The notes under the pieces were generated by a model. It was given only the letters and a program-made list of their open reading frames with translations, did no database searches and was not told where the DNA came from. Both the position numbers and the translations under genes were made by a program. Positions 18,283 to 37,339 of a DNA stretch of 37,680 bases are shown here, piece after piece. This DNA comes from Promethearchaeota archaeon (GTDB taxonomy: Archaea; Asgardarchaeota; Lokiarchaeia; Sigyniarchaeales; SOKP01). The stretch covers positions 21,763 through 59,442 of the forward strand of contig JBHLNS010000015.1 in the NCBI GenBank assembly GCA_048941285.1, in the 5' to 3' direction. Each line of letters begins with the position of its first letter. Position 1 is the stretch's first letter.

Positions 18283-18543
18283 TTATTTTTGGACAAGTTT
18301 ACAAGCATTTAAAATTTCCTTCCATATTGCTTCAACACTTATCCCTTTTATTATATTAGATTTCTTAATCATTCGCTCCAGAATTTCTTTTTCTCTCTGT
18401 GGTTGAGACACATCAATATTCAATTTTTTTTTCAGAATTCCAATTTCTAAAACAACTTTTGCTCGTTTATCTAATAAATCGACGAGTCTATCGTCAATTT
18501 CATCAATATTTTTCCTTAATTTCTCAATTTTTTCCATTGACAA
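18283..18543 (-). CDS. Monofunctional chorismate mutase (AroQ / CM_2)
   Basis: LRKNIDEIDDRLVDLLDKRAKVVLEIGILK and QREKEIL. The start may be ATG 18537. Confidence 0.85.
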   Translation of the reverse strand: MSMEKIEKLRKNIDEIDDRLVDLLDKRAKVVLEIGILKKKLNIDVSQPQREKEILERMIKKSNIIKGISVEAIWKEILNACKLVQK

Positions 18544-18623: not shown

Positions 18624-20318
18624 TTATGAATTATTTAATTCATCCAATAAATATTGAAAATTTAGTTCTAATGCCGCAACTGGAAATTCTAATTTGAAAT
18701 TTAATAATACTTCTGGATGGATTTCACCAATTTCCCCAATAATAGAATTTTTCAGGCAAATTTTACCGCATCGACCCTCTATATAGGTTGGATTTTTTTC
18801 AGATTTAACTTCATAATCTTCATAATATCCAAGCGAAGTCATTATAAAGTCAAGAGTAGATCTAATCTCTGTAAAATCGGCATTCTCATGATAAGTAGCA
18901 GCTGAAAGATGTACTTCCCTTCTTGCACCTGTCTCTTCTCTTTTATCCAGTAAAATTATATCACCAATTTCAAAGATTTTTATTGGTTTTTCCTCAGAGC
19001 GATTGTTTAGTAATGATTCTAATAGTTTTGGTAAAATACTTGTTCTTGTTGTATTATATTCTTTTGAAACTGGATTTAATATCTGGACATTATCTTTCTC
19101 TTTAAATTCTTGTCTCATATAATCGTATTGTTTCTCAGAGTTAGATAAGATCAAGTTCAAGACTTCTAAATATCCCGCACCAATCATGATAGTTCGAATT
19201 TTATTTGAAAAAGATTGAATTGGATGATACTCTCCTATACCCCCTTCTCTAATAGTTCTTGGTAATTTATCATATCCATATCCAATAGCACAATCTTCAG
19301 TGAAATCAACGATATGCATAATATCTCCTCTAAATGCTGGAATCCAGACATCTAAATAACCCTTTTTATTAGATTGTTTAGCATCAAATCTAACTTTATT
19401 AAAACATTTTATCATCTCTTCAGGCGATAAATTTAGTCCTATATAATCGTTAATATAATCAATCCCTACCTCCCACTTAATAGGATTCAAATTTGGGGTT
19501 ATAATTTCTTTTCCTCTCTTATAATTCACTTTAACACTTTCAACCTTTGCACCCATATCTGCTAAAGTTGTTGATAAAATGTTTAACGCTAAATTAACAG
19601 CTTTGAAATCTGTTCCAGTTAAATCTAAGAATAAATTTTTTGTATCGTCAGTTACTGTAGTTAAAACTCCATTAATCACAGGTGGAAACGACAAGACTTC
19701 ATTATTCTTATCATAAATTATTGGATATAACTCTTTTCCTTCTAAGATATGAGCATATTCAATACCTTTCTCATGTAAAAGTAATATTTCTTCTAAATTC
19801 ATAGAATAACCATCACCATGTAATGGAATAAAACTTACAGAATCCGGTTTAACTGCTGTATATCGATAGGGTGGTGTAATTTTATCAAGATCGTGAACAC
19901 CAATAGCTACTTTTTTTCTATCTCGTCCAACTGCCCAGTGTAAGTGTTCTTGGATGTTCATTAAAGTTGCGACTTCATCCTCATCTAAATCAATATCTCT
20001 AATAACACCACAGACAATATAGGGTCGGACGTTATCAACACTTGGATCCACATTTAATTCAATTTTTCCTGGAATAATTTCGAATGAAGGCATTCCTAAT
20101 TCTATTTCATAATATCCTTTAAGAGCTCTAGCAATCCCTTCAGGACTAGAAAAATCGGGTCTATTTGGATCATATTCAACTTTAATTTTTTGCTCTTCCT
20201 CATTTATATCTTCTAAATCTAAACCTATCCACTGTAAATCATATTCTAATTCTTTAATCTCTAATTTTTTACCGACTAACCTTTCCAATCTTTCAATTTT
20301 TAATTCTAAGGTTGGCAT
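18624..20318 (-). CDS. pheT: Phenylalanine--tRNA ligase beta subunit (archaeal/eukaryotic type)
   Basis: NRPDFSSPEGIARAL, QEHLH, AIGVHDLD, LSFPPVING, RGDIMHIVD and GEIHP; SD GGAGGT upstream. Confidence 0.96.
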   Translation of the reverse strand: MPTLELKIERLERLVGKKLEIKELEYDLQWIGLDLEDINEEEQKIKVEYDPNRPDFSSPEGIARALKGYYEIELGMPSFEIIPGKIELNVDPSVDNVRPYIVCGVIRDIDLDEDEVATLMNIQEHLHWAVGRDRKKVAIGVHDLDKITPPYRYTAVKPDSVSFIPLHGDGYSMNLEEILLLHEKGIEYAHILEGKELYPIIYDKNNEVLSFPPVINGVLTTVTDDTKNLFLDLTGTDFKAVNLALNILSTTLADMGAKVESVKVNYKRGKEIITPNLNPIKWEVGIDYINDYIGLNLSPEEMIKCFNKVRFDAKQSNKKGYLDVWIPAFRGDIMHIVDFTEDCAIGYGYDKLPRTIREGGIGEYHPIQSFSNKIRTIMIGAGYLEVLNLILSNSEKQYDYMRQEFKEKDNVQILNPVSKEYNTTRTSILPKLLESLLNNRSEEKPIKIFEIGDIILLDKREETGARREVHLSAATYHENADFTEIRSTLDFIMTSLGYYEDYEVKSEKNPTYIEGRCGKICLKNSIIGEIGEIHPEVLLNFKLEFPVAALELNFQYLLDELNNS

Positions 20319-20336: not shown

Positions 20337-21872
20337 TTAATATGATTGATTCCTCAACCATTTAATTGGATTAATATATAAATCTCTAATATCTTTCCGA
20401 TCAAAATATAACATCGCAATTCTCTCAAGTCCTTGACCCCATGCTAAAACACGAGTTGGATCTTTAATGCCCCAAGGGTATGTAACTTCAGGTCTAAAAA
20501 TTCCTGAACCTCCAAATTCTAACCATTCACCTAATTTCTCGAAATATACAGAAAATTCCATACTGGGCTCTGTATAGGGAAAGAATCCAGGTCTTGTTAT
20601 AATTTTTTCAAATCCTAATTTTTTATAAAACTCTAATAACAAGCCAATTAAATCACACAGATTTAAATGATCATCAATGACGATACCCTCAACTTGAGTA
20701 AATTCTGCTAAATGTGATTTATCTAGTTTTTCATTTCGAAATACTCTATCAATACAAAATACCTTTACCGGTACCTTTTCATTATTTCTATAAAATTGCG
20801 CTAATCTTCTTATTGTAGTGGCTGTTGTGTGTGTTCTTAAAACAGTTTTTTTTGCGGTATCGATATCCCATTCATAACCCCATCCAAGAGAACCTGAATC
20901 ACCACCATTTTCATGAGTTTCCCTGACTGCTTTTACTCTATCACTTTCAGGTAAATTAGCAGTTTTTGGATTGCTTAAATAAAATGTATCTTGCATTTCT
21001 CGTGCTGGATGATCTTGTGGCTGAAATAAGGCATCAAAGTTATAAAATGCACTTTCAACGATAGGCCCCCTTATTTCTGTAAATCCCATTGATAAGAAAA
21101 TTTCTCTAATCTCATTTATTAATCTGATCATAGGGTGAATTTTTCCCGCTTTCATTAGTGGTCCAGGCTTAGAAACATCAAAAGGCTTTAATTCATAATT
21201 TTTCCAAATTCCCGAACTTAGCATTTCAGATGTAATCCTACTAATTTGTTTTAGCTCTTGAATTTTAGAAATTGGAATTTTTTTACCTTTTTCTGTCAAA
21301 TATATAATCCTTTGAATCTTGCGTGTTCTTTTAATTAATTTCCTTTTATTCAGTAGATCTAATTGCTTTAATTCATCTTTTGATAGAGTAGAATAATCAA
21401 CCATATTATTTTCTTTGAAATTTTGAAGAAATAATTCAATTCCTGTTTGTGGAAATTTTTCAGTGATAATATATATTCTATTTTCACCAGAAGCTTTACT
21501 TTGAGCAACCCATTTGTTTTTTTTTAAATTTGAGATACCAACATAAAATAAATCTTCACTCATGCCCGATTTTTTAAAAAAATCATCTAAACTTATTTCT
21601 TTAACTTTATTTTCCAATAAAAAATTGATTAATTGGCGTTCAGGAAGTCCCTTTTTTAAGTATTCGATTCCTTCCTCGTTTAAATAAACTTGGTCCACAT
21701 TTTCTTCCTTGAAACCTCCTAAACCAAATTCAATTAAATCATTAACTGCTGACATAAGGATTATATAGTCGATATTTAATTCTCTTGCCAAATCATTCGC
21801 TAAAACTATACTAGCTTTTTTCTTTAATACTTTAAAAATTTCAATAGTTTGCTTTTTAAGTTTGATCGCCAT
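20337..21872 (-). CDS. pheS: Phenylalanine--tRNA ligase alpha subunit (archaeal/eukaryotic long type)
   Basis: NFDALFQPQDHPAREMQDTFY, LRTHTT, FRNE, HLAEFTQVEG, FPYTEPS, GSGIFRPE and GLER. Confidence 0.97.
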   Translation of the reverse strand: MAIKLKKQTIEIFKVLKKKASIVLANDLARELNIDYIILMSAVNDLIEFGLGGFKEENVDQVYLNEEGIEYLKKGLPERQLINFLLENKVKEISLDDFFKKSGMSEDLFYVGISNLKKNKWVAQSKASGENRIYIITEKFPQTGIELFLQNFKENNMVDYSTLSKDELKQLDLLNKRKLIKRTRKIQRIIYLTEKGKKIPISKIQELKQISRITSEMLSSGIWKNYELKPFDVSKPGPLMKAGKIHPMIRLINEIREIFLSMGFTEIRGPIVESAFYNFDALFQPQDHPAREMQDTFYLSNPKTANLPESDRVKAVRETHENGGDSGSLGWGYEWDIDTAKKTVLRTHTTATTIRRLAQFYRNNEKVPVKVFCIDRVFRNEKLDKSHLAEFTQVEGIVIDDHLNLCDLIGLLLEFYKKLGFEKIITRPGFFPYTEPSMEFSVYFEKLGEWLEFGGSGIFRPEVTYPWGIKDPTRVLAWGQGLERIAMLYFDRKDIRDLYINPIKWLRNQSY

Positions 21873-22023
21873 AATATTCAGCTATTTTATTTTAATTTTC
21901 CATTATATCTTTTAAAATCTCTAATCTATTTAAATCTTTTGTGAATAGAGTCTTTCTAAATCACCCGATCTTGAATTAGACTGATTATTTATTATTATAA
22001 ATATTAAAAAATTGAATCTTGAC

Positions 22024-22087
22024 AAAAAAACTAAAGAAATCCGCAGCCAAGAGAGTAATTTTTGTTTAGATTATATTATCTCTTGGC
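22024..22087 (-). terminator. Imperfect inverted repeat followed by a U-tract on the minus strand (candidate attenuator/terminator upstream of pheS)
   Basis: Minus strand GCCAAGAGATAAT-(15 nt)-ATTACTCTCTTGGC (22087..22046; 9 bp, a bulge, then 4 bp), followed by TTTCTTTAGTTTTTTT ending at 22024. Confidence 0.45.
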
Positions 22088-22090
22088 AAG

Positions 22091-22135
22091 TTAAAGAAGT
22101 CTAATAAAAATGAATCTTGGAAATTGAGTTCTAAT
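22091..22135 (-). CDS. Candidate Phe-rich leader peptide (M)RTQFPRFIFIRLL, ATT start
   Basis: AAAGGTG (22150..22144) lies 8 nt before ATT, the same spacing as coaD and aor. 14 codons include 3 Phe; the stop is 3 nt before the hairpin; located upstream of pheS. Confidence 0.35.
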   Translation of the reverse strand: MRTQFPRFIFIRLL

Positions 22136-22339
22136 AAATTATACACCTTTAAATATACTTTAGTTCCGATCAAATACAAAGAATTCATTTTCTATTTAAA
22201 TTAAATAAATATTATGTAAAAAAATTTTCTATTTTATCTTAATAAATATCTCAAAACAGGCAGCGCTTCTTTTAATTAAAAAACGAAAATTAAAAAAATC
22301 TTTAAAATAATTAAGTAAATCTTTGAAAATGGTATTGTC

Positions 22340-22783
22340 CTATAATCTTTTTCTTATCGATGTTGAGCTAATTTTTATATTATCTTTATTTTTTAGGATA
22401 GGGATAACAATTAAAACAAGAGGATTTAAACCTTTCTTTTCTCTATTCTCATTTAATTTTAAAGCATTCTCATACGTTTCCTGACTGACAATTAATCCTT
22501 CATATTCAGGATCTTGAGCATACTTGTCCATATCTGCCCAGTTTTGTATCTCAACAATATTTACTCGGCTTAAATCAGCAATAGATTTAATAAAAGTTTT
22601 CAAGTTTTCTTTTCTTATAACATAATCTTCTAATTCTGAAGCATATTGCTTATTTTTTAATAAGTCTTGAGAAGTTAATCCTATCTCTACAAATTCAGCT
22701 AAAGATAATGCTGTCTTCAAAAGGTATTTATGTCCTTCATGGAGATGATCGAAAGTTCCACCTAATCCAACTTTCTTAAGAAT
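22340..22783 (-). CDS. coaD: Phosphopantetheine adenylyltransferase (archaeal type), ATT start
   Basis: Extending the frame past the track's TTG (22720) recovers ILKKVGLGGTFDHLHEGHKYL with the HxGH motif. ATT at 22783 directly follows an in-frame TAG, with GGTG 8 nt upstream. Also GLTS, VSQET and ISSTSIR. Confidence 0.88.
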   Translation of the reverse strand: MLKKVGLGGTFDHLHEGHKYLLKTALSLAEFVEIGLTSQDLLKNKQYASELEDYVIRKENLKTFIKSIADLSRVNIVEIQNWADMDKYAQDPEYEGLIVSQETYENALKLNENREKKGLNPLVLIVIPILKNKDNIKISSTSIRKRL

Positions 22784-36755: not shown

Positions 36756-37163
36756 TTAATCTAAAACTAGAATTTTTGATAGCTTTAATAAAATTCCCAA
36801 ATTGCGTTTCCCTGTTGATCCCTTCGAGAATCTTAATTTCTTATAACCAAATTGACTTTTTTTAAATATCATATTAAGAACGGAATTTTCTCCATTTACA
36901 AAAAAGACTAAATCCTCGGGTGCTGCTCTTAGTTCTAAATCATATTCCTCTAATTTCTCTCTTCCTAAAGTATAGTTTCCATTGTTTGCAACTAAATTAA
37001 CCCAAAAATAATAATCTTCTTCAATTTGTAAACCTATAATTATTCTTGCATTGAACTTTTCTAGCATTTTTTTATTTTTAGGGTTTTTTTTCTTTTCATT
37101 TATTACACTTTCAATAGTTTGCTCAAAAGTAATAAATAAATTTTCTTTTTCTGATTCTTCCAT
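36756..37163 (-). CDS. Putative SCP2-like lipid-binding protein
   Basis: 135 aa; the pattern ..YDLELRAAPEDLVFFVNGENSVLNMI..KLRFSKG..NLGILLKL resembles an SCP2 C-terminus. SD AGGATGA upstream. Confidence 0.55.
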   Translation of the reverse strand: MEESEKENLFITFEQTIESVINEKKKNPKNKKMLEKFNARIIIGLQIEEDYYFWVNLVANNGNYTLGREKLEEYDLELRAAPEDLVFFVNGENSVLNMIFKKSQFGYKKLRFSKGSTGKRNLGILLKLSKILVLD

Positions 37164-37339
37164 ATTTTAATCATCCTTCTTAATTTCTTAATTATTTTAA
37201 AATGAAACTTGTATATTATAAAATTATTGTTTTAATTTTAGATTGAATATAAAATTTAATAAAACCATAAATATTATTACCCAATTAAAAGAATGTTACA
37301 AATTTCAAATTAAATTAACAAAATTGAAGGTTAAAGTAT

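Follow-up and report, generated by a model that had tools for sequence, protein, structure and literature searches.

A conserved phenylalanine-rich leader reading frame that ends inside a hairpin upstream of pheS in a family of Asgard archaea: a candidate translation-coupled phenylalanine sensor

In a 37,680-nt stretch of DNA from Promethearchaeota archaeon (GenBank assembly GCA_048941285.1, contig JBHLNS010000015.1, positions 21,763 to 59,442 of the forward strand; hereafter, the window), the gene for the alpha subunit of phenylalanyl-tRNA synthetase (PheRS), pheS, is preceded on its own strand by a short open reading frame (ORF) that carries a cluster of Phe codons and ends inside an RNA hairpin. 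We found that this leader ORF and its hairpin are conserved together throughout the genus and recur in most of the other genera sampled from the family. We consider it probable that the element is a cis-acting, translation-coupled Phe sensor for pheS, pheT and the adjoining chorismate mutase gene. An earlier note on this DNA had proposed a Phe leader-peptide attenuator in front of the same three genes. The core of that proposal, a Phe-rich ORF tied to a hairpin, is strongly conserved and is backed by a Trp leader elsewhere in the genome (see below), but the frame, start codon and length that it assigned to the ORF were wrong.

Our comparisons drew on pheS loci from 41 relatives and then on a search of 54 genomes of the genus. 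The close relatives of this PheS in public genomes are metagenome-assembled genomes, mostly labelled Promethearchaeota, the Asgard phylum. Counts for the genus refer to the 39 genomes with enough sequence, and the leader alignment holds 38; these genomes are related to each other. The earlier note had suggested aligning the regions upstream of pheS in relatives, and such an alignment did recover a conserved short Phe-rich ORF with covarying stems, though in the neighboring frame. Three-frame translation of the relatives placed the conserved frame at +1 relative to that of the earlier note, which began at an ATT and ran for 14 codons to a TAA at 22093..22091. The ATT frame is present in the window with its 3 Phe codons, but it is not conserved: in relatives it has no start and meets stop codons a few codons upstream.

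The conserved leader frame, in contrast, was open in all 39 genomes and carried an in-frame ATG in 37 of them; one exception is masked by N, and the other (G047) has none. Over the last 87 nt of the ORF, the 38 aligned genomes together contain no stop codon in the leader frame, compared with 89 and 87 in the other two frames. Judged from these sequences, the leader ORF is under selection to stay open while most of its peptide varies. The modal length in the genus is 29 codons, and the N-terminal half of the peptide is unconserved. Conservation is confined to the C-terminus, which reads Q-D-S-F-F-F-x-F-F-I-L-P-R-E-stop. Phe occupies its five consensus positions in 32, 27, 27, 29 and 39 of the 39 genomes, a total of 154 of 195 cells (79%), where the background frequency of Phe in the 3,572 intergenic upstream ORFs (uORFs) of this genome is 9.6%. 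Within the conserved codons, TTT alternates with TTC and CTG with TTG, and the codon between the two Phe runs is free to vary.

The leader ORF of the window is less rich in Phe than those of its relatives, with 4 Phe in 40 codons. It starts at an upstream in-frame ATG and stops three codons later than usual. We noted separately that this upstream ATG lies in the 5’ strand of a helix described below (P1; window 22177-22190, minus strand; columns 40-53 of alignment A1) and is itself conserved. In most relatives it opens a mini-ORF of three codons, M-N-S-stop; here and in 6 other genomes of the genus it shares the frame of the leader ORF, giving an ORF of 37-40 codons.

Two RNA helices accompany the ORF. 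P1 forms between a strand that precedes the usual start codon and the codons immediately ahead of the Phe run, and P2 is the hairpin whose 5’ arm contains the leader stop codon. Both helices are present in the minimum free energy (MFE) fold of the window sequence, and the 18-nt linker that separates them holds the Phe codons. Across the 38 aligned genomes, P1 is 84.6% paired, with changes on both sides in 6 of its 13 pairs, and P2 is 90.7% paired, with changes on both sides in 2 pairs; the lower 6 bp of P2 are invariant save for one G-U, and the upper stem covaries. Combined, the P1 and P2 structure is 87.7% paired, compared with 84.8% in shuffles (0 of 500 reached the observed value) and 28.8-55.4% when the partners were slid by 1-3 columns. 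P2 alone folds at -14.1 kcal/mol (z = -4.15), and none of 200 shuffles was as stable.

These results bear on the RNA structures that the earlier note had drawn. The minus-strand letters that it reported are all there, including AAAGGTG at 22150..22144, the ATT at 22135 and the T7 run at 22030..22024, and its hairpin at 22087..22046, our P2, is present and far above chance. Its wider scheme fared less well. The whole 161 nt that it described do not fold more stably than shuffles (z = -0.22). The proposed switch between P2 and a pairing of the Phe region with the 3’ arm of P2 is not borne out by energy, as the alternative averages -4.9 kcal/mol versus -15.9 kcal/mol for P2 in the 38 genomes. A repeat beginning CAAGATTCA does occur at both 22119 and 22021, but the second copy is exact only in this genome (alignment A3). 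Pairing with the region after the T-run, with the 5’ strand of P1 as partner, averages -5.4 kcal/mol versus -5.0 kcal/mol for shuffles, and only 3 of the 38 genomes beat 95% of their shuffles.

The placement of the Phe codons relative to P2 suggests how a ribosome might read the one and control the other. Six nucleotides separate the end of the last Phe codon from P2, and elongating archaeal ribosomes protect 27 nt (PMC7261190). With this spacing and footprint, a ribosome held up on the final Phe codons would sit over the G+C-rich base of P2. The mean folding energy of P2 in 40 genomes is -15.9 kcal/mol, falling to -6.5 kcal/mol when the first 4 nt are masked and to -1.6 kcal/mol when the first 7 nt are masked. 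Downstream of P2 lies a T-run, whose longest stretch within 45 nt is 3 nt in 5 genomes, 4 in 16, 5 in 7, 6 in 8 and 7 in 2. A run of at least 4 follows P2 in 33 of the 38 genomes, beginning 5-23 nt on, and a run of at least 5 in 17 of 38. As an observation apart from this tract, the Phe codons themselves form a T-rich run immediately after P1 (22093-22113, minus strand), which reads T5-C-T3 in most relatives and only T5 in the window; it could act as a pause or partial termination site for archaeal RNA polymerase inside the leader ORF.

Assembled into a mechanism, these parts would work as follows. A leader transcript would start from its own promoter, which resembles a transcription factor B recognition element with a TATA box (BRE/TATA-like), and would encode the short ORF, in which conservation is limited to the four to five Phe codons and to the final codons, those of the 5’ arm of P2. 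When charged tRNA-Phe is plentiful, the ribosome would reach the stop codon inside P2 and leave. P2 (about -16 kcal/mol) would then fold and, with the T-rich tract 5-25 nt on, end or destabilize the transcript. When Phe-tRNA-Phe is scarce, the ribosome would wait at the pair of Phe codons whose end is 6 nt from P2; its footprint of about 27 nt would cover the base of P2 and keep it unfolded, and transcription, or the RNA, would continue into pheS. Here we infer translation of the ORF, stalling of the ribosome, the ending of transcripts by P2 with the T-run, the sign of the response and a transcript shared by the leader and pheS.

The element is found well beyond the genus. We sampled 20 loci from 10 other genera of the family, and the ORF and hairpin recur in 9 of the 10. 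At 17 of the 20 loci there is a hairpin and an open frame of 26-65 codons ending in P-R-E or P-R-N before the stop, most with F-F just upstream, and 14 of these 17 have an in-frame ATG. An eighteenth locus (G086) has a variant hairpin and the residues F-F-K-F-F-I-P-P-R-D, read by eye from its sequence; the two loci of one genus (g12) retain a diverged hairpin only. In the other families of the order, no comparable Phe-rich uORF was present at any of 12 loci, 8 of which have just 29-129 nt before pheS. The element is single-copy in the genome (nhmmer E 1e-15, with the next match at E 0.066). The gap before pheS is kept block by block across the genus, including two loci (L004 and L005) with a different upstream gene, and at these loci, too, the element stays with pheS.

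Promoter-like sequences stand on both sides of the leader. The BRE/TATA-like block upstream of the leader ORF is kept in 17 loci, again including L004 and L005. Motifs of this type (AAA.TTTWWA) peak 60-80 nt before the ATGs of 1,844 genes of this genome, and Shine-Dalgarno-like motifs peak at -20 to -11 in the same set. A second conserved block lies close to pheS; its conservation ends about 35 nt before the pheS ATG, and its BRE/TATA-like site is about 65 nt before the ATG. This position fits the genome-wide distance from TATA box to ATG, so pheS probably also has its own promoter. The earlier note had named a pheS transcription start downstream of 22020 as an outcome that would count against it, and the block does predict a start near 21908, which is such a start by prediction only. 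P2 keeps a constant spacing of 178-184 nt from the pheS ATG in 16 loci. Just upstream of the pheS BRE/TATA-like site we also observed a strongly conserved element of 35 nt (window 21945-21980, minus strand), which holds a third copy of a CAAGAT motif and could be a transcription-factor site.

To place the Phe leader among the uORFs of its genome, we scanned 1,565 intergenic gaps, containing the 3,572 ATG-to-stop uORFs, for bias toward a single amino acid. This identified a Trp leader: a uORF of 16 codons, 4 of them Trp, located 199 nt before a gene for a TrpB-like pyridoxal phosphate enzyme (NF009057, E 4e-188). The Trp uORF was present in all 30 genus loci fetched, reading M-A-T-V-R-x3-W-Q-W-P-W-x-W-Q-stop or close variants. 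A small hairpin spans its stop codon and is followed by a T6 run and then by a conserved block before the TrpB-like gene. That one genome holds two such cognate pairs, Phe codons before the PheRS genes and Trp codons before a TrpB-like gene, makes a chance origin very unlikely and favors sensing of amino acids by way of leader translation. No tRNA-Trp was identified among the 24 tRNA hits of the genome. About 25-45 nt before the TrpB-like start there is, in addition, a 7-bp hairpin (CACATCT / AGATGTG; loci L111-L140) with compensatory changes (CACATTT / AAATGTG), which could gate the translation start.

Other candidates from the scan were set aside. The only other Trp-rich uORF (G000 contig C68) is the antisense of a Pro-rich ORF of 80 aa, and its downstream gene is regulator-like; the Val-, Arg-, Thr- and Met-rich uORFs precede unrelated genes. 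The Met-rich uORF, on the same contig, has 7 Met in a row encoded by an ATG repeat, and lies 188 nt before a flavin-reductase-like gene (36843-37328; L098); it may be a simple repeat.

A search of the genome for the base of P2 surfaced a gene for tRNA-Phe(GAA) (G000 C24:42911-43044, minus strand; L066) with two introns, in the D-loop and T-loop regions, that neither ARAGORN nor the Rfam tRNA model had detected. Its orthologues in the genus carry from none to three insertions in varied places. In most relatives the base of P2 is identical to the 7-bp acceptor stem of this tRNA; in the window the match covers 6 of the 7 pairs, the lower 6 bp. With the tRNA as query we obtained 30 loci, with both gene ends found in 28; the acceptor stem is the same as the P2 base in 20 of these 28 genomes and differs at 1-2 pairs in the other 8, where P2 is unchanged. 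Of 20 distinct acceptor stems searched, Phe included, the 19 others yielded no look-alike hairpins; their matches were the tRNA genes and a handful of coincidences in coding sequence. The resemblance could be left over from the origin of the element, could mark a site recognized by PheRS, RNase P or tRNase Z, or could be a coincidence favored by the need for G+C-rich stems.

We weighed several other explanations for the conserved leader. One is that it is transcribed independently, as a gene for a small protein or as a small RNA, from its own promoter to an end at the T-run, and that pheS is transcribed from its own promoter only, any link between the two acting in trans or through transcriptional interference. 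The uORF and pheS are each preceded by a promoter-like block at the customary distance, which agrees with this, as do the T-rich tract after P2, the lack of a conserved RNA fold between P2 and pheS, and the conservation of the pheS-proximal block, which stops about where a start site is expected. We nevertheless regard it as unlikely. A peptide whose N-terminal half varies and whose length ranges from 20 to 40 aa is unlikely to be a functional protein in its own right; the fixed distance from hairpin to ATG and the persistence of the element beside pheS when the upstream neighbor changes both tie it to that gene; and the pairing of each leader with its cognate gene argues for control in cis. 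Another explanation would make P2 a tRNA-Phe acceptor-stem look-alike, bound by PheRS in a feedback loop or cut by RNase P or tRNase Z, with the ORF secondary. The identity of the P2 base with the acceptor stem speaks for it, and the 13-bp stem is close to an acceptor/T-arm minihelix. The lower 6 bp, moreover, never covary in the 38 genomes while the upper stem does, which suggests that the sequence itself matters; this invariance may instead reflect a double duty of coding L-P-R-E and pairing. We think this account distinctly improbable: P2 stays constant in the 8 genomes whose tRNA stem has changed, so there is no co-variation; it lacks a conserved T-loop-like loop and is followed by U-GCGGA rather than A-CCA; it stops 178 nt or more short of the pheS start codon, clear of the translation start; and none of the 19 other acceptor stems searched has such a hairpin. 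PheRS, furthermore, reads mainly the anticodon, position 20 and A73.

The C-terminal peptide might also act as a nascent-chain arrest peptide, sensing free Phe or stalling at termination in the manner of TnaC or the fungal arginine attenuator peptide, with no dependence on tRNA charging at hungry codons. Its F-F-x-L-P-R-E/D end and the site of the stop hardly change within the family, and the Trp leader, too, has a Pro a few residues before its stop. Conservation of peptide and RNA cannot be separated here, because the P-R-E codons are the invariant hairpin arm; the Phe positions shift, with Leu, Ile, Ser, Tyr or Val in place of Phe in several lineages, and in the window the stop is displaced by three codons. 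We therefore give this possibility very little credence. Least of all do we credit chance without function. Phe codons and small hairpins are common in DNA of 25% G+C, and 5 or more Phe within 7 codons occur in 11 rows of the 3,572 uORFs, several of which are nested starts within a single ORF, but a coincidence would not keep the ORF, both helices and their spacing across 11 sampled genera of the family.

A number of observations weigh against a translation-coupled Phe sensor. On the side of the ORF, the canonical in-frame ATG is missing in 1 of the 38 readable genus genomes (G047) and in 3 of the 17 family loci, and in the window Phe fills 3 of the 5 consensus positions, with Leu at the other two. 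On the side of the RNA, RNAalifold alone recovered only 7 invariant P2 pairs from the 38-sequence leader alignment and found no consensus fold in the 220 nt from P2 to pheS (alignment A3, 39 genomes); the T-run after P2 is just 3-4 nt long in 21 of 38 genomes; and among the candidate duplexes tested in the genus there was no conserved antiterminator alternative. The hairpin and U-tract described in the earlier note do not fit the bacterial intrinsic-terminator pattern, for which our scan found 0 sites. Archaeal oligo-T termination is not known to need a hairpin, so the bacterial test may not apply. A ribosome at the stop codon would mask P2 as well, so the model needs fast release. The conserved promoter-like block near pheS suggests that the gene can be transcribed on its own. 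No RNA run is among the 20 runs listed as containing the stretch, and the conservation counts, coming from related genomes, overstate their independence.

The nearest known systems are bacterial. In Escherichia coli, pheM-pheST and pheL-pheA are leader-peptide transcription attenuators. As in these, a short co-oriented ORF with clustered Phe codons immediately precedes genes for PheRS or the Phe pathway, a hairpin is followed by a U-rich tract, and a variable N-terminus precedes conserved regulatory codons. The element described here differs in its archaeal host, in having no Rfam match and no antiterminator alternative that we could find, in an ORF that ends inside the hairpin, and in a second promoter-like block before pheS; P2, moreover, has a loop of 15-20 nt and stands apart from the T-run, and so is not a bacterial intrinsic terminator. 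In short, the ORF-side features of a bacterial attenuator are found, and those of the terminator and antiterminator are not. A closer parallel for the role of the ribosome is the E. coli pyrBI leader, where the translating ribosome physically blocks a terminator hairpin and UTP is sensed through RNA polymerase pausing. There, as here, the leader ORF enters the hairpin, and the position of the ribosome alone can decide folding with no need of a third strand; the signal differs, since in our model, where the mechanism is inferred only, an amino acid would be read through hungry codons.

The E. coli thrS operator, a tRNA-like structure bound by ThrRS, resembles the element in that a piece of leader RNA looks like the cognate tRNA. 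In the present case, however, what is copied is the acceptor stem rather than the anticodon arm, and the hairpin lies at a distance from the pheS start and does not co-vary with the tRNA. Attenuation of E. coli pheST is mentioned in PMC1262725, and short polycysteine ORFs that respond to cysteine are reported from mycobacteria (bioRxiv 10.1101/834739). These resemble our leaders in being short ORFs rich in codons for one amino acid that head operons for the metabolism of that amino acid, outside the enterobacterial attenuator design. They differ in being bacterial, leaderless and Cys-specific.

Coordinates are collected in the table below. The minus-strand gene row of the window comprises pheS, pheT, a type II chorismate mutase gene and an RNase PH-type gene. 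Upstream of pheS, a cytidylyltransferase-like gene ends at 22340, leaving a gap of 467 nt with about 25% G+C in a window of about 27% G+C. No Rfam family, leader families and T-box included, reached its gathering score in the window, and ARAGORN found no tRNA there.

Table. Positions of the leader element, neighboring genes and the Trp leader (window coordinates unless a locus is named).
Feature	Position	Strand	Remarks
Leader ORF, 40 codons plus stop (protein P0001)	22066..22188	minus	ATG at 22188 to TAA at 22068..22066; from translation
P1 5’ strand	22177..22190	minus	its ATG shares the leader ORF frame in this genome; MFE-fold partner 22120..22108
P1 3’ strand	22108..22120	minus	in the ORF, running up to and through the first consensus Phe codon; MFE fold and alignment
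Phe-codon region, also U-rich linker between P1 and P2	22093..22122	minus	Phe codons 22122..22120, 22110..22108 and 22098..22093
Hairpin P2	22046..22087	minus	5’ arm codes L-P-R-D..., within the last ORF codons
3’ tail of P2, T-G-C-G-G-A	22040..22045	minus	near-invariant columns in alignment A1
T7 run	22024..22030	minus	candidate archaeal oligo-T termination signal, from sequence
ATT-started frame of 14 codons	22091..22135	minus	no conservation in relatives; as an ORF, outside the element
Second copy of the CAAGATTCA..T-run repeat	22006..22021	minus	pairing with P1 not above shuffles
BRE/TATA-like block (A-rich, then T7-A)	22217..22230	minus	putative leader promoter; conserved uORF ATG position about 60 nt downstream
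Conserved block with an upstream element followed by a BRE/TATA-like site (TATA 21934..21927)	21903..21980	minus	likely pheS-proximal promoter, predicted
pheS (PheRS alpha, 511 aa)	20337..21872	minus	PF01409, E 4e-87
pheT (PheRS beta, 564 aa)	18624..20318	minus	PF17759, B5, B3_4 and B1 domains
Chorismate mutase type II (86 aa)	18283..18543	minus	PF01817, E 2e-19
Trp uORF	L097:420-470		G000 contig C70
TrpB-like gene	L097:619-2034		G000 contig C70

Leader-peptide attenuation is the textbook case of coupled transcription and translation in bacteria, and we found no report of it in archaea in the open full-text literature, a search that did not cover subscription journals. It is possible, though we hold this only tentatively, that the Phe and Trp leaders belong to an Asgard family of ribosome-read amino-acid gauges that work without an antiterminator: a stalled ribosome would hide the base of a single hairpin, and here the copy of the tRNA-Phe acceptor stem would serve as a termination signal or a tRNA-type processing signal. 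If a translation-coupled sensor is indeed at work, the Phe and Trp leaders would show that archaea, too, read their amino-acid supply through the speed of the ribosome on a leader, with a leader design that dispenses with the bacterial pair of terminator and antiterminator and that stands near the root of eukaryotic uORF control.

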